Notes: generated from the letters alone by a model not told the origin. Shown: positions 2,470 through 10,537, counted from the stretch's first letter. The stretch: 11,161 bases of DNA from Candidatus Uhrbacteria bacterium (GCA_027330985.1 DAHVZI010000002.1:1-11161), one strand, 5' to 3'. A program made the numbers and translations.

Positions 2470-3585
2470 ATGGGAAGAATAGAGAAAATGTTCAGAGAGA
2501 CCAAAGTCGCGGCGAAAGCCACCTTCAATAGGGCGAAGCGCGGTTTTTCTCCGATCGAGCCCGCGATGGCGGCAGCCGTGGATACTGCGCTGACGAACCA
2601 GAAACATTGGCCGTATCTGGCGGCGAGAGGCGGGGAGCATCTGGTTTTTTCGTTCGATGATCCACGCTTGCAGGGCATAGTCTATAAGGTGAGCTATTTC
2701 GAGAGCTTGCCGATTTTGAGCGCTTGGTATGAGGGCGAAGATGCCGTTGAACGAAAATTGGAGTCCATGCATGAGGAGATGGACCAGCGTACGGCGAAAC
2801 TCAAACGGATGCGTGAATATTTCGGTTTCAACGCTGTGCCGCCGCAGCGTTTTGTGATCAAAAAATTGCCGGTGACCCATGCGTTGATCATGGCTCTGAA
2901 AGCGGAACATCTAGTGCAGGGAATGGATTTGCCTAAAGAGCTGCCGGTTTGGGTGTGCGTCCAAAGAAAAATCAAGAAACCTGAAGGGCAGACCTATCCT
3001 TTGAACGGATATTATCCGGAAAGCAAGAAAAGGCTTGGCAGGTCTTGGAGCAAGGAGGATATCGAGACTTATGACGCAGCGCATGATGTATTGTTCGGTG
3101 GTCCGTTGAGTGGGATGGATCAAGCGTCGCAGGAGCGATGGGTATTGTTGGAATATCCGGAGCTTCTTCCATTGTGGCAGGCGATGATAGGAGATCCGGC
3201 CCTCAAGAAAGAATTGCAGGATGTCGTCAAGAAGCTCATCACTTATACTAAAGAAACTGGTGAGTTGATGGAGTTGGCTGGGGAAGAGAATGCGGTTCTG
3301 CTTAAGGAGAAAGCCGGGTGGCAGGTCAAGTTGTTCGACGCTTTGCCCACGAAGGGCTTAAATCTTGAGAGATTCAGGGAAGTAACGGCGAAGTTAAAGT
3401 CCGGTAGGTCTTTGACGATGCCACAGAGATATGTGGCGATGAATGGTCTGAATACCTTGCGTTTCATCAACGCTTTGGCGCTGATCGCGGAAGTCCCGGA
3501 GAGGATGGTAGAGCCTGATGTATTATCCGTACCAGCTGAGACTTGGCGGCAAGAGATATCTAAAATCTTCAAAGACAAGACATAA
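2470..3585 (+). CDS. Hypothetical protein, paralog B (371 aa). Kinase-like fold with acidic substitutions in the catalytic-loop motif.
   Basis: ATG 2470 lies 1 nt after TGA 2466-2468 of paralog A (translational coupling). It has the same motif set: RGGEHLVF, IVYKV, MELAGEENAVLL (D->E at both Asp positions, Asn kept), KLFDALP (Asp kept). The gene ends at TAA 3583-3585, directly followed by a hairpin terminator. Confidence 0.8.
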   Translation: MGRIEKMFRETKVAAKATFNRAKRGFSPIEPAMAAAVDTALTNQKHWPYLAARGGEHLVFSFDDPRLQGIVYKVSYFESLPILSAWYEGEDAVERKLESMHEEMDQRTAKLKRMREYFGFNAVPPQRFVIKKLPVTHALIMALKAEHLVQGMDLPKELPVWVCVQRKIKKPEGQTYPLNGYYPESKKRLGRSWSKEDIETYDAAHDVLFGGPLSGMDQASQERWVLLEYPELLPLWQAMIGDPALKKELQDVVKKLITYTKETGELMELAGEENAVLLKEKAGWQVKLFDALPTKGLNLERFREVTAKLKSGRSLTMPQRYVAMNGLNTLRFINALALIAEVPERMVEPDVLSVPAETWRQEISKIFKDKT

Positions 3586-3647
3586 CAAAACATCCTCTTG
3601 CGAGGATGTCTTGTATGGTGGACGGCAGAGGAGTCGAACCTCTGACC
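3582..3647. repeat. Direct repeat copy 1 (66 nt; terminator hairpin plus 32 nt of tRNA 3' end). It matches copy 2 except for differences within GTCTTGTA/GTTTTGCA.
   Basis: ATAACAAAACATCCTCTTGCGAGGATGTCTTGTATGGTGGACGGCAGAGGAGTCGAACCTCTGACC compared directly with 3971-4036. Confidence 0.9.
3591..3615. terminator. Rho-independent terminator, bidirectional. Hairpin CATCCTC-TTGC-GAGGATG flanked by A-rich 5' and TCTTGT 3' sequence.
   Basis: 7-bp perfect stem with U-rich tails on both strands. It sits immediately after the paralog B stop (+ strand) and immediately after the CCA end of the tRNA-like fragment (minus strand). Confidence 0.6.
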
Positions 3648-3678
3648 TCCCCGGTGTCCACCGGGGCGCTCTAATCAA
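3616..3678 (-). pseudogene. Degenerate tRNA fragment (D-loop to CCA, ~63 nt). The acceptor 5' strand and D-stem 5' strand are missing, and the anticodon arm is non-canonical.
   Basis: The minus-strand sequence reads ..TTGATTAGAGCG-CCCCGG-TGGACA-CCGGGG-AGGTC-AGAGG-TTCGACT-CCTCT-GCCGTCC-A-CCA. From the variable loop to CCA it is identical to tRNA-Val at 4005-4081, and the D-loop is 11/12 identical. The anticodon arm is replaced by a 6-bp GC stem with a 6-nt loop still centred on GAC. No 5' acceptor strand (GGACGGC) lies upstream, because the GIY-YIG stop codon is at 3690. Confidence 0.6.
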
Positions 3679-3689
3679 TCATCTTTTTG

Positions 3690-3956
3690 TTAATTCGAAT
3701 CGATGAAAATCTTTTTTTCTTTGATGATTCGTTTAATCAAGCTCCTATCTTTCCAAGATTTAATTCTATATTCTAACCGTCTCGCTTGAAGTAAGGTCTT
3801 AGTTTCACGATAGAATTCACATGACCATGGTCGTCCCGAGGCTGTGGACTTAGTCATCCCTGTATTGTGTTCGTGTAAGCGTCGGTTTAGATTATCGGTC
3901 GATCCGATATAAAAGCGATTTCGTGTTTTTGAAAATAAGATGTAACAGTAGGCCAT
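3690..3956 (-). CDS. GIY-YIG nuclease family protein (small, 88 aa, URI-domain only)
   Basis: The N-terminus MAYCYILFSKTRNRFYIGSTDNLNRRLHEHN matches the GIY-YIG signature (YILxS...YIGxTxNLxxRLxxHN). ATG on minus strand at 3954-3956, stop at 3690-3692. Confidence 0.8.
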   Translation of the reverse strand: MAYCYILFSKTRNRFYIGSTDNLNRRLHEHNTGMTKSTASGRPWSCEFYRETKTLLQARRLEYRIKSWKDRSLIKRIIKEKKIFIDSN

Positions 3957-3970
3957 GCTCCAGAGCTAAT

Positions 3971-4036
3971 ATAACAAAACATCCTCTTGCGAGGATGTTT
4001 TGCATGGTGGACGGCAGAGGAGTCGAACCTCTGACC
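3971..4036. repeat. Direct repeat copy 2 (66 nt), overlapping the terminator and the 3' 32 nt of tRNA-Val
   Basis: See copy 1. Confidence 0.9.
3981..4004. terminator. Rho-independent terminator downstream of tRNA-Val (same hairpin as 3591-3608, followed by TTTTG on + and preceded by AACAAAA)
   Basis: CATCCTC-TTGC-GAGGATG-TTTTG. On the minus strand the tRNA CCA end is followed by the hairpin and a TTTTGTT run. Confidence 0.6.
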
Positions 4037-4081
4037 TTCACAATGTCAATGTGACGCTCTAACCAACTGAGCTAGCCGTCC
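4005..4081 (-). tRNA. tRNA-Val (anticodon GAC), CCA encoded
   Basis: The minus-strand sequence is GGACGGC-TA-GCTC-AGTTGGTTA-GAGC-G-TCACA-TTGACAT-TGTGA-AGGTC-AGAGG-TTCGACT-CCTCT-GCCGTCC-A-CCA. This gives a 7-bp acceptor stem, 4-bp D stem, 5-bp anticodon stem with 7-nt loop (T-T-GAC-A-T), 5-nt variable loop and 5-bp T stem with TTCGA. Confidence 0.9.
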
Positions 4082-4182
4082 GGACTTAGTCATTTTTAGT
4101 GTCTAAAATGCGGTGCAAATTTAGCCGAAAAGATGGAATATGTCAAACAGGTCTGGAGACCGTAGGTTGGTGCGTGTGATAC

Positions 4183-4204
4183 TTGTCTCGGGATGTGCTA
4201 TAAT
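4183..4204 (+). promoter_or_regulatory. Candidate promoter with extended -10 (TGcTATAAT, 4196-4204) and a weak -35-like TTGTCT (4183-4188) at suboptimal 10-nt spacing
   Basis: Perfect TATAAT with upstream TG, ~38 nt before ATG 4242. Confidence 0.4.
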
Positions 4205-4241
4205 CAAACGGACATTAATCATTTCCTAATATCCTCATTTT

Positions 4242-6171: not shown

Positions 6172-6183
6172 CCATTGGTTGAT

Positions 6184-8862
6184 ATGCAAGAAAACGAAAA
6201 ATGGCCAAAAGCCTACGATTCCTCGCAAGTGGAGAAGGATATCTATAAACACTGGGAAGAAAGCGGCTATTTTAACCCGGATACGCTACCGGAACGGAAT
6301 CGTGGTGGAGAGATGTATAGCATCATGATGCCGCCGCCAAATGTCACGGGAGTCTTACATTTGGGCCATGCGATGGAGGATACGATCATGGACATCGCTG
6401 TCAGATTTCAGAGGATGCGCGGTAAGAAGGCGTTGTTGTTGCCAGGTACCGATCATGCGGCCATCGCGACGCAATCAAAAGTAGAAAAGTTATTGATGAA
6501 GGAGGGCGTCAAATATCCACGCGAGGAATTGGGGCGTGAGAAACTGGTGGAGAAGATCAGGGAATTCGCGGAGAACTCCAAGTCCACAATCTTGAGTCAG
6601 ATCAGGGTAATGGGCACAAGCTGTGATTGGTCGCGTTTAGCCTACACGCTTGATGAAGCGAGGAATCGAGCGGTCAACGAATTATTCGTCAGGATGTACA
6701 AGGATGGTTTGATTTATCGGGGATATAGAGTGGTCAATTGGTCCATCAAGGGTCAGATCACCTGTTCAGATGACGAAATCGTTTACATAGAAAGACCGGC
6801 TAAACTTTATACATTCAAATACAGCAAGGATTTCCCTATAACGATTGCGACTACTCGTCCAGAGACGAAATTAGGGGACACGGCAGTGGCGGTGCATCCG
6901 GATGATGAACGTTATAAAAAATACGTTGGTCAGACGTTCACTGTCGATATAGGCGCAGCGAAACCATTATTGATAAAGATCATCGCAGACGAAAGCGTAG
7001 AAAAGGATTTTATGACTGGAGCTTTAGGGGTGACTCCTGCTCACAGCGCGGTAGATTTTACGATGTATGAAAAACAGAAAGCCAAGAATGATCCTATCGG
7101 TATCGTACCTGTGATTGGTACGGACGGCAGGATGACAGAAGCGGCAGGCAAGGATTATGTCGGCTTGACCGTTGAAGAAGCCAGGGAAAAATTCGTGTCT
7201 TGGCTGAAGACGCGGGGTTTACTGGAGAGCGAAGAAGATATCACACAAAACGTCGGCACGTCTGATCGTTATGAGGACGTCGTGGAATCTTTGCCCATGA
7301 CGCAGTGGTGGCTGGATATGAACAGGGAGATTCCAGGGCGTGGAAAGAGTTTACGCGACCTGATGCGCGAAGCCGTAACCACGGGATTAGACGGAAGTGC
7401 GGAGAAGAAAATCAGGATCATGCCTGAACGTATCGTCAAGGAGTACTTGGATCGCATTGATAATTTGCGCGATTGGTGTTTGTCTAGGCAGTTGTGGTGG
7501 GGGCATCGGATCCCGGTCTGGTACAAAAAACAACCCGCCGTTACGAACGACGAATCTAGCGAGAAGGAGATGTATGTCGGAGCAGTTGCTCCCGAAGGAG
7601 AAGGGTGGGAACAGGATCCGGACACGTTGGATACGTGGTTTTCGTCAGGTTCTTGGACTTTTTCGACTTTGGGCTGGCCAGAAATAACGGAAGATCTGAA
7701 GCGCTATCAACCGACAAGCTGGATGCAGATGGGTTATGAATTGAGATATTTATGGATGATGAGGATGATTTTGATGCATACCTACGTGCTAGAAGAGATT
7801 CCGTTCAAGGATTGCTATATCCATGGACTATTGAAGGATGAACATGGCAAGAAATTCTCGAAGTCTTCCGGCAACGGCATCGACCCGATCGAAGTCGTGG
7901 AGAGGTATGGATGCGACGCGCTTAGATTGAGTTTGATTTTGGGGATTTCACCAGGAAATGATTCCAAGTTCTATCTGGAGAAGGTAGAGGCAAATAGGAA
8001 TCTGGTGAATAAGATTTGGAATATTTCGAGATTCATCGTGTCATCGACTCAGGATACCGACTCCGCTTCGCGTGTGGAGGCAAAAACCCTGGCGGACAAA
8101 TGGCTGTTGGCGAGACTCGCAGAGATAGAGTCTAGGGTAACGGAGATGCTTGAGAGCTATCAGTTTTCACAGGCGGGCGAGATGTTGCGCGACTTTACCT
8201 GGAGCGACTTAGCGGATTGGTACTTGGAGATTGCGAAAATCGAGAAGGGCAAGGAAGCGATATTGCGTCACATCCTCGAGACGGTTTTGAAATTATGGCA
8301 TCCGTTCATGCCGTTCGTGACGGAATACATCTGGGGATTGATGGGGAATAAGGATTTGATAGTGGCGGAGTGGCCAAAGGATGACGTACTGCGTACCGAG
8401 TACCGCGAAACGGCAGAATTCGAAACAGTCCGCAATCTGGTGACCGATATTCGTAGATTGCGGGCGGAGCAGGGAGTCGAACCGGCGAAATTTATAGAAG
8501 CTGGCGTGGCAGCAAGCGGTGACGATCAGCAGCGTCTGGAAGAAAACGTTGAAGTAATCAAACACTTGGCGCGTCTGTCGGAAATGAAATTAGTCGCGAC
8601 AGTGCCGGAAGGTTGGGCGACTACCGTTTCCGGTGTGATGACTGTCGGCATAAACGTCGCAGGTACGGTCGATAAGGAGAAGGAGAGAGCTAAAGCGGAA
8701 AAGGAAATCTTAGAGCTCAAGCCGTATATCGAAGCGACCCGGGCAAAATTAGCGAACCAGGAATTCGTGTCAAAAGCTCCGGAGAAGGTTGTGCAGGGGA
8801 TGAAAGACAAGTTGGCGGAGGCGGAGGCTAAGCTTAAGGCGCTTGAAGATACGTCGACTTAG
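6184..8862 (+). CDS. valS: Valine--tRNA ligase (valyl-tRNA synthetase), 892 aa
   Basis: Class I aaRS HIGH motif PPNVTGVLHLGHAME, KMSKS motif KFSKSSGN, editing and anticodon-binding regions, and the ValRS-specific C-terminal coiled-coil (KEKERAKAEKEILELK...KLAEAEAKLKALE). The track start at 6175 is TTG; the first ATG is 6184. Confidence 0.9.
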   Translation: MQENEKWPKAYDSSQVEKDIYKHWEESGYFNPDTLPERNRGGEMYSIMMPPPNVTGVLHLGHAMEDTIMDIAVRFQRMRGKKALLLPGTDHAAIATQSKVEKLLMKEGVKYPREELGREKLVEKIREFAENSKSTILSQIRVMGTSCDWSRLAYTLDEARNRAVNELFVRMYKDGLIYRGYRVVNWSIKGQITCSDDEIVYIERPAKLYTFKYSKDFPITIATTRPETKLGDTAVAVHPDDERYKKYVGQTFTVDIGAAKPLLIKIIADESVEKDFMTGALGVTPAHSAVDFTMYEKQKAKNDPIGIVPVIGTDGRMTEAAGKDYVGLTVEEAREKFVSWLKTRGLLESEEDITQNVGTSDRYEDVVESLPMTQWWLDMNREIPGRGKSLRDLMREAVTTGLDGSAEKKIRIMPERIVKEYLDRIDNLRDWCLSRQLWWGHRIPVWYKKQPAVTNDESSEKEMYVGAVAPEGEGWEQDPDTLDTWFSSGSWTFSTLGWPEITEDLKRYQPTSWMQMGYELRYLWMMRMILMHTYVLEEIPFKDCYIHGLLKDEHGKKFSKSSGNGIDPIEVVERYGCDALRLSLILGISPGNDSKFYLEKVEANRNLVNKIWNISRFIVSSTQDTDSASRVEAKTLADKWLLARLAEIESRVTEMLESYQFSQAGEMLRDFTWSDLADWYLEIAKIEKGKEAILRHILETVLKLWHPFMPFVTEYIWGLMGNKDLIVAEWPKDDVLRTEYRETAEFETVRNLVTDIRRLRAEQGVEPAKFIEAGVAASGDDQQRLEENVEVIKHLARLSEMKLVATVPEGWATTVSGVMTVGINVAGTVDKEKERAKAEKEILELKPYIEATRAKLANQEFVSKAPEKVVQGMKDKLAEAEAKLKALEDTST

Positions 8863-9016: not shown

Positions 9017-10537
9017 ATGATAAAACAGACCAGGCTTTATCAGCCGGAGAAATATAAGGTCTTCGTAGGCGAAGGGACGGGTGCGGCGTTATGCACTGTT
9101 TGGAATAATCCAGAGATCCTACATAGACAATCGGCCGTGGTCCGGAAAAGGTGCCATTTGGTGGGTTCGCTATACAGCCGTTTCGGGGTGAATGTCCTAC
9201 TACGTAACTTGGCCCTGAATCCGCAAATCAGGAAATTATATCTTTGGGGCCATGGTCCGTTGTCCAACACGGCGTATGGTCGGCCGGGCGCTGAAATCCT
9301 ACGTACCTTGTGGCAGCGTGGACCCCGGTCTGACGGCGGCGTTGAGGGCCTGGATTGGAAAATGGAGAAAGAAATGCCAGCGGATTTGGTCCGGGAGATA
9401 ATAAGACATGTCGAGCTCCAAGATATCAGCCCAGAAGACTTCGGAGTCTTGGAGCGAAGAATCGAGAGTGAACAGACCACTGGAGAAGCATACATGAGCC
9501 CGATTTCCCTGCCGGAACCTAAGCTAGAGCAGGGCGCGAGTTTCCCTTCGGAGGAGATAGGCTGGCTTTTGCGTGACCGTAAAACGATTCAGGTCTGGAG
9601 TCGAGTGGTCGAGCGCGTAATGCGTTTCGGCACGGTAAAAGGCACGCAATACGGTTATCAGCAAAAGGAACTACTGGATGTCGACTGGATCGTGGAAGAT
9701 GAGGATCCGTTGGAGCCGGACCTGATTCTCGCTCAAGATTGGCCAGAAGGAATGAAGGAAATAACAGGGGCGCGACATGAATCAATACTTGAATATCAGC
9801 GTGCGTTCCTTTCGCCCGAAGCCCTACCACAACTTTCGTATACCTATGGTAATCACCTGCAGAGATATCCGAACGATACTGGAGGCATCGATCAGATACG
9901 CGAATCCATCATAGCGCAACTTAAATCTTCATCGGATTCACGACGCGCTGTTGCCATCACGCTGTACCCGCCACAAGACGCCTACTCGCGTGAACCGCCG
10001 TGTCTAATCCTGGTCCAAACTCTGCAGAGTCGGAAACATCTGCATCTGATCGCGACTTTTCGTAGTCATGATGTATTCAAGGCTGCCATACCGAATGCCT
10101 TTGCCCTGAGACTGCTGCAGCAGAATATTGCCGATGAGCTCGAGATGGAATTGGGTCGGCTTGCCATACATTCTCAGTCAGCACATATCTATGAGCAGGA
10201 TTGGGCTCAGGCTAATGATTTGGCGGCCTGTTTCTTTTGGCAGCGCGAGGCAGGGGCGACATTTTGCCCGGAAGCGGAGGCTGATCCACGCGGTGTGGTC
10301 ATAATCTCTGTGGAAGACGGGGCTATAAATGTCAGATTGCGCGATACGGATGGCCATGATCTCGTCAGCCTGTACGATAAGACTGCGAATAAGATAGCGC
10401 GGCAAATAAGCCATCTGGAATTGCTGAGCAAAAGCAGCCATCAAATTTATATCGGTATGGAGCTACAGAAGGCAGAGCTGGCTTTGATCAATGGTTGGCA
10501 TTATGTACAGGATAAGCCTTTGGCGATTGAGAGATAA
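9017..10537 (+). CDS. Thymidylate synthase (ThyA/dCMP-hydroxymethylase) family protein, 506 aa, with a large internal insertion and a C-terminal extension
   Basis: ThyA landmarks are collinear. The N-terminus has GEGTGAALCTVW...VVRKRCHL (E. coli ThyA DRTGTGTLSIFG...TTKRCHL). After a ~190-aa insertion come YGNHLQRYPNDTGGIDQIRESIIAQLKSSSDSRRAVAITLYPP (YGKQWRAWP..DGRHIDQI..LKNDPDSRRIIVSAWNP) and REPPCLILVQ (catalytic Cys of the PCH motif). Further ThyA blocks are FRSHDVFKAAIPNAFALRLL ([21 protein letters not shown], Asn kept) and SAHIYE (GDTHLY). About 100 aa follow with no ThyA counterpart. Confidence 0.7.
   Translation: MIKQTRLYQPEKYKVFVGEGTGAALCTVWNNPEILHRQSAVVRKRCHLVGSLYSRFGVNVLLRNLALNPQIRKLYLWGHGPLSNTAYGRPGAEILRTLWQRGPRSDGGVEGLDWKMEKEMPADLVREIIRHVELQDISPEDFGVLERRIESEQTTGEAYMSPISLPEPKLEQGASFPSEEIGWLLRDRKTIQVWSRVVERVMRFGTVKGTQYGYQQKELLDVDWIVEDEDPLEPDLILAQDWPEGMKEITGARHESILEYQRAFLSPEALPQLSYTYGNHLQRYPNDTGGIDQIRESIIAQLKSSSDSRRAVAITLYPPQDAYSREPPCLILVQTLQSRKHLHLIATFRSHDVFKAAIPNAFALRLLQQNIADELEMELGRLAIHSQSAHIYEQDWAQANDLAACFFWQREAGATFCPEAEADPRGVVIISVEDGAINVRLRDTDGHDLVSLYDKTANKIARQISHLELLSKSSHQIYIGMELQKAELALINGWHYVQDKPLAIER

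Follow-up and report, generated by a model that had tools for sequence, protein, structure and literature searches.

We analyzed a stretch of 11,161 nucleotides from Candidatus Uhrbacteria bacterium (GCA_027330985.1, DAHVZI010000002.1:1-11161; hereafter the window, meaning this whole stretch, with positions counted from its first letter), in which a tRNA-Val(GAC) gene is accompanied by a small GIY-YIG nuclease gene and by a disabled copy of the tRNA. Its placement in the Patescibacteria comes from the flanking proteins and the source contig. The minus strand carries, in this order, the tRNA-Val(GAC) gene, a hairpin, an open reading frame (ORF) for a GIY-YIG protein of 88 amino acids (aa), a tRNA fragment running from the D-loop to CCA, and the same hairpin once more. 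In the following list of features, tRNA* denotes the disabled copy, the cassette is the nuclease gene with tRNA* and its hairpin, and L001 is one of the loci compared with the window.

4118..4146 (-): sigma-70-like promoter of tRNA-Val, TTGACA-17 nt-TAAATT, a 10/12 match, kept in L001
4005..4081 (-): intact tRNA-Val(GAC) with CCA encoded (ARAGORN; Rfam RF00005, 70.6 bits), 77/77 identical to the L001 tRNA
3971..4047: copy 1 of a direct repeat (repeat analysis), made up of the tRNA 3′ part from the variable loop, the hairpin and a T-run
3975..4002 (-): hairpin 1, directly 3′ of the intact tRNA, with a 12-bp perfect stem, a GCAA loop and a T-rich tail, terminator-like
3957..3970 (-): leader of the cassette, 14 nt, ATTAGCTCTGGAGC, between the repeat and the ATG
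3690..3956 (-): GIY-YIG nuclease gene, 267 nt including the stop codon, 88 aa, PF01541 match
3616..3678 (-): disabled tRNA-Val copy (tRNA*), with a D-loop remnant, a hairpin, the variable loop, the T arm, the 3′ acceptor strand and CCA
3649..3666 (-): hairpin CCCCGG-TGGACA-CCGGGG in place of the anticodon arm, also readable as a 7-bp stem, CCCCGGT-GGAC-ACCGGGG
3582..3658: copy 2 of the direct repeat, contiguous with the flank orthologous to the empty-site flank
3585..3614 (-): hairpin 2, with a 13-bp stem, scored as intrinsic-terminator-like
3582..3970 (-): block of 389 bp missing from relatives, from repeat spacing and intergenic lengths

The tRNA-Val gene at 4005-4081 (-) was the single tRNA called by ARAGORN in the whole window. 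The direct repeats (3582-3658 and 3971-4047) are 77 nt long and 92% identical, with a start-to-start spacing of 389 nt; because of this repeat, positions 3659-4047 are equally valid limits of the 389-bp block. Outside the replaced anticodon arm, the repeat comprises 67 nt with 2 mismatches, and the D-loop segments (3667-3678 and 4055-4066) are identical at 11/12 positions. tRNA* has neither the 5′ acceptor strand nor the 5′ strand of the D-stem. ARAGORN did not call it a tRNA, nor did Rfam at E ≤ 1, and its predicted RNA fold consists of three separate hairpins. A preliminary description of this DNA had listed a complete tRNA-Val(GAC)-CCA, terminator-like hairpins after the tRNA and after its copy, a 267-bp GIY-YIG gene, a second tRNA copy extending from the D-loop to CCA and a near-perfect direct repeat (hairpin plus tRNA 3′ end) bracketing the nuclease gene. 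These elements were recovered by our analysis, and the fragment proved not to be scorable as a tRNA.

Terminal inverted repeats, a trait of insertion sequences and miniature inverted-repeat transposable elements, were not found at the block. The repeats of such blocks are tRNA-derived and range across loci from ~50 to >115 nt, unlike the fixed short target duplication of those elements. The 389-bp insert encodes no tyrosine or serine recombinase, its sole ORF being that of 88 aa.

The core of the cassette leader, TTAGCTCTGGA (11 nt), is common to the window, where the partner is tRNA-Val, and to L010, where it is tRNA-Arg, the two proteins being only 50% identical; this core resembles a shortened tRNA D-arm (TAGCTC..TGG..AGC). 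A 12-nt exact repeat, ATGACTAAGTCC, occurs on the minus strand within the ORF (3846-3857) and directly 5′ of the tRNA (4082-4093). It is probably due to chance, given that the leader of the tRNA can be aligned with its orthologue in L001.

The 88-aa protein matched the GIY-YIG profile PF01541 with 58.7 bits (cut-off 22.6; E = 7e-16). The family-conserved residues Y5, Y16, G18, R26, H30 and E62, which are invariant or nearly so in 43 homologues, are intact. An AlphaFold (AF2) model of the protein had a mean confidence (pLDDT, predicted local distance difference test) of 93.6, and its best Foldseek matches were the Slx1 nuclease domain (7cq3, 4xlg) and BH0048, a UPF0213 protein (1zg2), followed by weaker matches to the I-TevI and UvrC nuclease domains. 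Sequence matches in the PDB were to SLX1 only and weak (E = 0.0016 and 0.005). Only 8-10 residues follow the catalytic domain, which is the sole domain of the protein; the Pfam/NCBIfam scans revealed no DNA-binding or other extra domain, TIGR01453 matching residues 4-37 only and below its cut-off. Judged by sequence and modeled fold, it is a minimal Slx1/UPF0213-type GIY-YIG protein, closer to Slx1 than to UvrC or the homing endonucleases.

A word-indexed homologue search gave two proteins only, and an exhaustive HMMER search was used instead. It yielded 3853 family representatives at E ≤ 1e-3, none of which was more than 55% identical to the window protein. A look-up of the exact 88-aa sequence returned no record. 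The closest relative of the window is L112, whose protein is 64-66% identical. The Slx1/UPF0213 proteins (YhbQ, BH0048) resemble the window protein in being stand-alone, ~90 aa long and free of auxiliary domains, and they provide its best matches in both sequence and fold. They differ in history, as prokaryotic stand-alone Slx1-like proteins have been described as a minimal form of the fold that is inherited vertically, in an account that does not mention tRNA genes, repeats or arrays for these proteins (Dunin-Horkawicz et al. 2006, PMC1564403).

We compared the tRNA-Val locus with those of relatives that share the flanking genes. In L001 (flanking protein 84% identical), a tRNA-Val gene identical at 77/77 positions, with the promoter TTGACA-17-TAAATT kept, is followed by one hairpin and then by the orthologous flank. 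L138 (78% identical) has tRNA-Val alone in a 264-bp intergenic region, with the tRNA unit inverted, and L003 (40% identical) has the tRNA alone between the same flanking genes. The intergenic length at this locus is 656 bp in the window, compared with 272 bp in L001 and 264 bp in L138. Because all three relatives are empty, and at least three separate losses would be less economical, the 389-bp block is best read as a gain in the lineage of the window. On these sequence comparisons, the block is shown to be an insertion, in line with the preliminary description, which had taken the arrangement for a tRNA-associated insertion or duplication. The presence/absence contrast holds between species only. 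L133 and L139 were too short to be of use here.

The unit of tRNA-Val(GAC) promoter, tRNA and terminator is inverted in L138 (1-370) and L133 (1250-1440) relative to the window (3586-4241) and L001. By this sequence evidence, the tRNA-Val locus is rearranging even without the cassette.

The arrangement in the window is no assembly artefact. JAJYXM01 and DAIBWE01, which are independent long contigs of metagenome-assembled genomes, have the same layout at 99.8% identity, and three short-read contigs from two other runs end exactly at the repeat edges.

These comparisons bear on the simplest account of the locus, in which a tandem tRNA-Val duplication has decayed, the GIY-YIG gene is an old resident housekeeping gene and the anticodon arm was mutated by chance. 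Tandem tRNA genes are common in bacteria, and the 5′ part of the copy is degenerate, as this account would have it. However, the same-flank relatives have neither the gene nor a second tRNA, which leaves unsupported the alternative, raised in the preliminary description, of a two-tRNA tandem that lost one 5′ half. The replaced arm speaks against it as well: its sequence is conserved and occurs in disabled copies of more than 10 other tRNA types in two phyla, its stem is perfectly paired and without drift, and Arg, Pro and Ala contexts show the same GGAC loop (see below). We therefore regard the decay of a tandem as highly improbable.

To survey similar genes elsewhere, we used a three-sequence profile with one genome per species, which gave 80 loci; apart from the source genome, these came from other Patescibacteria and many Bacteroidota. 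Three short metagenome contigs with the first homologues found (L005-L007) were added to this sample. A bona fide tRNA gene lay within 200 bp upstream on the same strand for 58/99 GIY-YIG genes, with a median gap of 54 nt, and most of the remaining genes were inner members of arrays or lay at contig ends. At the level of loci (77, in other species), a bona fide tRNA was found within 200 bp of the gene in 58, upstream of it in 54, and the conserved hairpin described below was within 200 bp in 54. For a random gene, a tRNA at this distance would be expected in ~1% of cases, an estimate from typical tRNA gene densities rather than a computed value. The GIY-YIG gene was always co-oriented with the tRNA, and its ATG lay 0-60 nt past the T-run of the terminator across loci, leaving almost no leader of its own.

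The partner tRNAs included Lys(ttt), Leu(taa, caa, tag), Met, Val(tac, gac, aac), Arg (four anticodons), Ala, Pro and Glu, and the design was found beside at least 10 kinds of tRNA in Patescibacteria and Bacteroidota. The stop codon was usually followed by a partial copy of the same tRNA and its terminator, the repeat being ~50 to >115 nt long. The nearest GIY-YIG relative shared the tRNA type in 25 cases and differed in this respect in 12. Arrays with more than one gene copy were present at 16/77 loci, including L069, with five copies at a 394-nt period, and L036, with at least six copies, several of them frameshifted; among Algoriphagus species, the copy number at one tRNA cluster varied from 1 to at least 3. 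The adjacency to tRNA genes is thus systematic, mostly with a partial copy of the same tRNA past the stop codon. Together with the empty sites, the 58 of 77 loci near a tRNA support the earlier proposal that small GIY-YIG genes are, or were, mobile with a tRNA-proximal preference.

The hairpin that replaces the anticodon arm of tRNA* belongs to a family with the motif (T/C)CCCGAT-N3-6-ATCGGG(A/G), of which the window carries a variant. Across all loci, we counted 183 such hairpins lying outside bona fide tRNAs, where ~2.6 would be expected by chance in the genome sample (344 kb). The stem was CCCGAT in 144 of them, and the other variants were CCCGAC, CCCGAA, CCCGGT (the window) and CCCGCA. As the search required perfect pairing of the six inner stem pairs, the seventh pair alone provides an unbiased test of covariation. 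Among 41 distinct sequences, it was UA in 28, CG in 9, UG in 2 and unpaired in 2, and hence paired in 39/41. Mismatches in imperfect hairpins numbered 7 G:T and 4 A:C, a split that points to neither RNA nor DNA. The variable loop length and the covarying closing pair favor a folded single strand, be it DNA or RNA, rather than a palindromic duplex site for a dimer. The stem is kept across phyla whose nuclease proteins share only 35-50% identity, which suggests that the hairpin is under selection.

Mapped on the cognate tRNA, the hairpin takes the place of 15 nt, precisely positions 28-42, together with the closing pair (27-43). Arm-replacing hairpins were seen in Patescibacteria and Bacteroidota alike, in copies of Ala, Arg(acg, ccg, gcg, tct), Asp, Lys, Pro(cgg, tgg) and Val(cac, gac, tac) tRNAs. 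In other lineages, hairpins were found in the T-loop (Leu-taa, Leu-caa, Val-tac, Lys, Arg), the D-loop (Leu-caa, Leu-tag) or the anticodon loop (Met, Leu-tag), and these loop-placed hairpins replace 1-5 nt. The GGAC loop of the window is also present in disabled Arg, Pro, Ala, Asp and Ile copies; the GAC within it is, therefore, not a relic of the Val anticodon. The 6-bp stem and 6-nt loop that the preliminary description had given for the altered arm are correct, but its interpretation as a degenerate arm retaining the Val anticodon gives way to that of a conserved hairpin.

Rfam 15 contained no family other than the tRNA family RF00005 that matched the hairpin-bearing copies, apart from one sub-threshold match to YrlA. 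Full-length hairpin-bearing copies at 8 loci scored 30-46 bits on RF00005. As this exceeds the gathering score of 29, such copies may be annotated as tRNAs or pseudo-tRNAs. At L036 (2394-4025), L014 (2743-2816), L018 (2743-2816) and L067 (2743-2819), ARAGORN reported full-length copies as tRNA-??? with 2-nt or 4-nt anticodons.

Some hairpins occur in less usual settings. In L009, a disabled tRNA-Arg copy bears two hairpins, in the anticodon arm and in the T loop (2264-2312 and 2770-2818), and more hairpin-bearing fragments lie upstream of the intact tRNA-Arg. In L122 (~880-900) and L112, an oppositely oriented member of this hairpin family, with a GTCC or degenerate loop, is located just past the tRNA-Val terminator, outside any tRNA-like context.

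A metagenome scan for the hairpin in its Patescibacteria form, including the 3′ variable-loop flank, gave a second sample of 39 loci. Beside the hairpin, 31 of these had a bona fide tRNA and 17 a GIY-YIG gene; in the eight loci devoid of a tRNA, the hairpin was within ~120 nt of the contig end in five, and a GIY-YIG gene stood beside it in two. Many loci had a mirror layout, in which a hairpin-bearing 5′ tRNA part is followed by the GIY-YIG gene and then by the intact tRNA, the ORF ending 0-10 nt before the first base of the tRNA or overlapping it. About half of the hairpin-bearing fragments were solo, with no nuclease gene nearby. In L112, an identical tRNA-Val(GAC) is associated with the same rare stem variant as in the window, but the variant resides in an upstream 5′ fragment. 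The tRNA-Val(GAC) locus was thus encountered in at least four states: empty (L001, L003, L138), with a solo 5′ fragment (L106, L122), with a 5′ fragment and a downstream nuclease gene (L112), and with the intact tRNA, the nuclease gene and a 3′ fragment (the window).

Algoriphagus L014 has hairpin-bearing 5′ fragments of tRNA-Lys and tRNA-Pro with a truncated T arm and no nuclease gene (1850-1920, 2175-2230 and 2275-2330). These Lys and Pro fragments lie upstream of intact tRNAs, look like solo remnants of the mirror layout and have similar counterparts in L018, L019 and L023.

From the 183 hairpins, we compared the two flanks of the hairpin in tRNA* with the adjacent intact tRNA. Where tRNA* was downstream of the tRNA (n = 69), the 3′ flank was at least 90% identical in 32 cases and the 5′ flank in 7. 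Where it was upstream (n = 63), the 5′ flank reached this level in 44 cases and the 3′ flank in none. These sequence comparisons show that the half of tRNA* away from the intact tRNA is host-like, whereas neither the half near the nuclease gene nor the hairpin is; these behave as cassette DNA. In L094 and L098, tRNA* mismatches the adjacent tRNA, indicating that tRNA* can contain parts of foreign origin.

A direct repeat of a tRNA 3′ end around foreign DNA is the classic signature of integration, and the block might accordingly be the remnant of an integrase-mediated island or prophage in the 3′ end of tRNA-Val that has lost all but one gene. Sublocations of integration sites within tRNA genes were reportedly distinguished by Williams in 2002, the anticodon arm and the T loop being the classic two. 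The cassette shares with integrase islands the regeneration of an intact tRNA, the displacement of a tRNA fragment that forms the far-side direct repeat, and a junction at the anticodon arm or T loop. It differs in having nuclease-only cargo and no integrase; none is encoded within the 11-kb window, and the insert is just 389 bp. Moreover, the same compact unit, carrying nothing else, recurs at ~100 loci, the repeat runs through the terminator and varies in length, the attR-like junction has, instead of the anticodon arm proper to the tRNA, a conserved hairpin of foreign origin, and the mirror layout has its repeat on the 5′ side. We consider an integrase remnant highly improbable. As to the integration signature at the tRNA 3′ end noted in the preliminary description, the 3′ direct repeat stands, but the junction is not simply at the 3′ end; it is in the anticodon arm and marked by the hairpin, and the layout also occurs in mirror form.

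The features of the hairpin raise a different possibility, that the nuclease gene and tRNA* constitute a functional RNA-protein module in which the tRNA body scaffolds the hairpin as RNA. The RNA could be an antitoxin or translational operator acting on the nuclease, a guide for the nuclease, or a signal for mRNA processing or stability in the tRNA transcript. This idea would account for a swap that keeps the length of the arm (17 nt to 16-18 nt at exactly positions 27-43), for the covarying stem and the loop of 3-6 nt, which suit a folded single strand better than a dimer-bound duplex, and for the location of the hairpin insertions in loops of the cloverleaf. Full-length Bacteroidota copies, which keep 30-46 bits on the tRNA model, and the constant co-orientation of a nearly leaderless gene with the tRNA agree with it as well. 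In type III toxin-antitoxin loci, the order is RNA, terminator and toxin, which the order of tRNA, terminator and nuclease recalls. On the other hand, many copies, including that of the window, are without the 5′ acceptor strand or consist of the T arm only, so that no tRNA-like fold is conserved, and acceptor pairing is lost even in the full-length copies of L018 and L026. The sense-strand mismatches (7 G:U against 4 A:C) point neither way, and the frameshifted array copies, the solo fragments and the presence/absence in relatives look selfish rather than regulated. We regard a functional module as unlikely, while noting that it is compatible with mobility and would not exclude it.

A close known parallel is SegB of phages T4 and T6, a free-standing GIY-YIG homing endonuclease in a tRNA gene cluster that is statistically enriched near tRNAs; it cuts inside tRNA genes at the motif RAWTSGAAC, the complement of a conserved T-arm sequence, and drives recombination-dependent tandem amplification of tRNA and segB, truncated copies included (PMC13096335). 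The cassette resembles SegB in that a GIY-YIG gene sits among tRNA genes and in that the tandem amplification by SegB is reminiscent of the arrays found here. SegB, of ~220 aa, is phage-borne and has a DNA-binding part, whereas the cassette protein is chromosomal, is confined to a catalytic domain of 80-95 aa and has no homologues in the phage and plasmid collections searched. By sequence and fold, the cassette protein is also nearest to Slx1/UPF0213 rather than to the Seg/I-TevI group, and a hairpin-substituted tRNA copy has not been described for SegB. Of the traits of Seg-type homing genes, presence and absence at a locus was found here, between species, whereas the C-terminal DNA-binding module was not.

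Other parallels are organellar. Paquin et al. are said to have described in 1994 an element in the mitochondrial atp6 gene of Allomyces that contains a GIY-YIG ORF and brings a replacement end for the host gene. The likeness lies in the GIY-YIG cargo, in an incoming end that keeps the host gene functional, and in the resident end displaced downstream as a pseudogene fragment; elements of the atp6 type differ by their protein-coding organellar hosts, by larger endonucleases with demonstrated site specificity, and by the lack of a junction hairpin. The GC clusters of yeast mitochondria and the double-hairpin elements of Allomyces are tiny mobile GC-rich palindromes, sometimes beside endonuclease ORFs. 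They are similar to the hairpins described here as GC-rich hairpin units at new sites without flanking homology, but they are organellar, differ in sequence and are not restricted in location to tRNA-gene loops. In the full-text literature, searched also for the hairpin sequences (subscription journals being mostly outside this search), we found no account of minimal GIY-YIG genes tied to tRNAs and no description of hairpin-substituted tRNA copies.

Taken together, these results lead us to favor, with a probability of about 0.6, the reading that the 389-bp block is an inserted copy of a small selfish nuclease cassette that lives beside tRNA genes and uses the tRNA halves as homology arms. The parts of the cassette are an Slx1/UPF0213-type GIY-YIG gene for 80-95 aa, tRNA* and the conserved GC-rich hairpin. 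By analogy, it is best read as akin to free-standing homing-type nuclease elements and to tRNA-targeted insertions; it would be a relative in kind of SegB, much smaller and chromosomal.

In the mechanism that we propose, a unit of 5′ part, hairpin, 3′ part, terminator and nuclease gene would be copied beside the cognate tRNA by homology-dependent recombination. An exchange 3′ of the hairpin would give the layout of the window, and an exchange 5′ of it the mirror layout. The flank asymmetry is what this model predicts, because the unit would recombine with the chromosomal tRNA either 5′ or 3′ of the hairpin; the same asymmetry would arise if, following a break in the tRNA, an occupied allele served as the template for the unit. 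The nuclease would supply the initiating break in tRNA-gene DNA, as SegB does, and repeated breaks with unequal repair would lead to recombination-dependent tandem arrays, again as with phage SegB. The nuclease may recognize structure rather than sequence, since it is Slx1-like and without a binding domain. Slx1 is structure-specific rather than sequence-specific, a property that would suit the targeting of stem-loops in tRNA genes. The nuclease gene is probably expressed by terminator read-through from the tRNA promoter; the promoter at 4118..4146 is a host element and is presumed to be the source of read-through transcription into the cassette.

The conservation of the hairpin leads us to infer that it is a selected cis element. 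It could render the second tRNA copy uncuttable as well as non-functional, which would prevent loss of the cassette between its own repeats, or it could be a handle or site recognized by the nuclease. A bolder, and in our view doubtful, version makes the hairpin the working end of an unrecognized insertion system, in which the GIY-YIG protein swaps or inserts the hairpin at stem-loops of tRNA genes. The hairpin would then be recognized as folded single-stranded DNA, or as RNA on a tRNA-derived scaffold, targeting would be guided by structure or by tRNA*, and the nuclease gene would spread together with the hairpin to which it is linked. Such a system would be unlike known transposases, integrases and RNA-guided nucleases.

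Several points weigh against the favored reading of a selfish nuclease cassette. The activity and target of the nuclease are read from its sequence and predicted fold, and sequence-specific homing is hard to picture for a protein without a DNA-binding domain. The tRNA-Val of the occupied allele is unaltered, at 77/77 positions, from that of the empty allele; the host would therefore not be immune if the target lies in the tRNA, and protection by a target change in the occupied allele is not apparent from the sequences. A within-species empty allele was not found by way of the two flanking proteins, the conspecific contigs being either occupied or broken at the repeat. As both repeats of the window carry the same terminator, duplication in situ fits as well as import, and the flank asymmetry may also be compatible, at the sequence level, with in-situ duplication followed by decay of the gene-proximal half. 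Simple crossovers in conserved tRNA arms could not move the cassette to a new tRNA type, and chimeric acceptor stems would be expected from them; the hairpin insertions in T- and D-loops, which are without flanking homology, imply that a second mechanism must exist. Nor is a vehicle for horizontal spread evident, as the phage and plasmid collections contained no homologues and the viral contigs only six partial N-terminal matches. In Flavobacteriales, some pairs of tRNA and GIY-YIG gene, for example Gly-Leu(taa)-GIY, are kept across families, which suggests possible long vertical retention and so some benefit to the host. Finally, the genome sample was selected by protein similarity and the hairpin sample by sequence pattern, neither being an unbiased census.

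The remainder of the window contains other genes. Its 5′ end is formed by the last 580 nt of a 16S rRNA gene; in this 3′ part (1-580), two helices are shortened as compared with the bacterial model. Neither a spacer tRNA nor a 23S rRNA gene follows in the remaining 10.5 kb of the window, and the rRNA genes appear to be unlinked. A valyl-tRNA synthetase gene (6175-8862) lies 2 kb from tRNA-Val(GAC), a neighborhood kept in L001 and L003. A 506-aa ORF (9017-10537) has a partial thymidylate-synthase match (residues 272-400) and a C-terminal pterin-binding DUF4346 domain.

If the favored reading is true, a widespread selfish element is reshaping tRNA loci in two large phyla, and the finding that a phage GIY-YIG nuclease amplifies tRNA genes would be carried over to cellular chromosomes. 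It would also account for the abundance of paralogous genes annotated as "GIY-YIG nuclease family protein" in Bacteroidota genomes. At the practical level, short-read assemblies break at cassette loci, and the hairpin-bearing tRNA copies are at risk of misannotation. A catalytic domain of fewer than 100 residues, a hairpin of 16-18 nt and portable tRNA arms would make a very small system for finding a target without a DNA-binding domain, and the cassette might be adapted for insertion beside tRNA genes. Should the hairpin be the active end of a structure-guided insertion system, that system would be categorically new. In the ultra-small Patescibacteria, every 400 bp counts.

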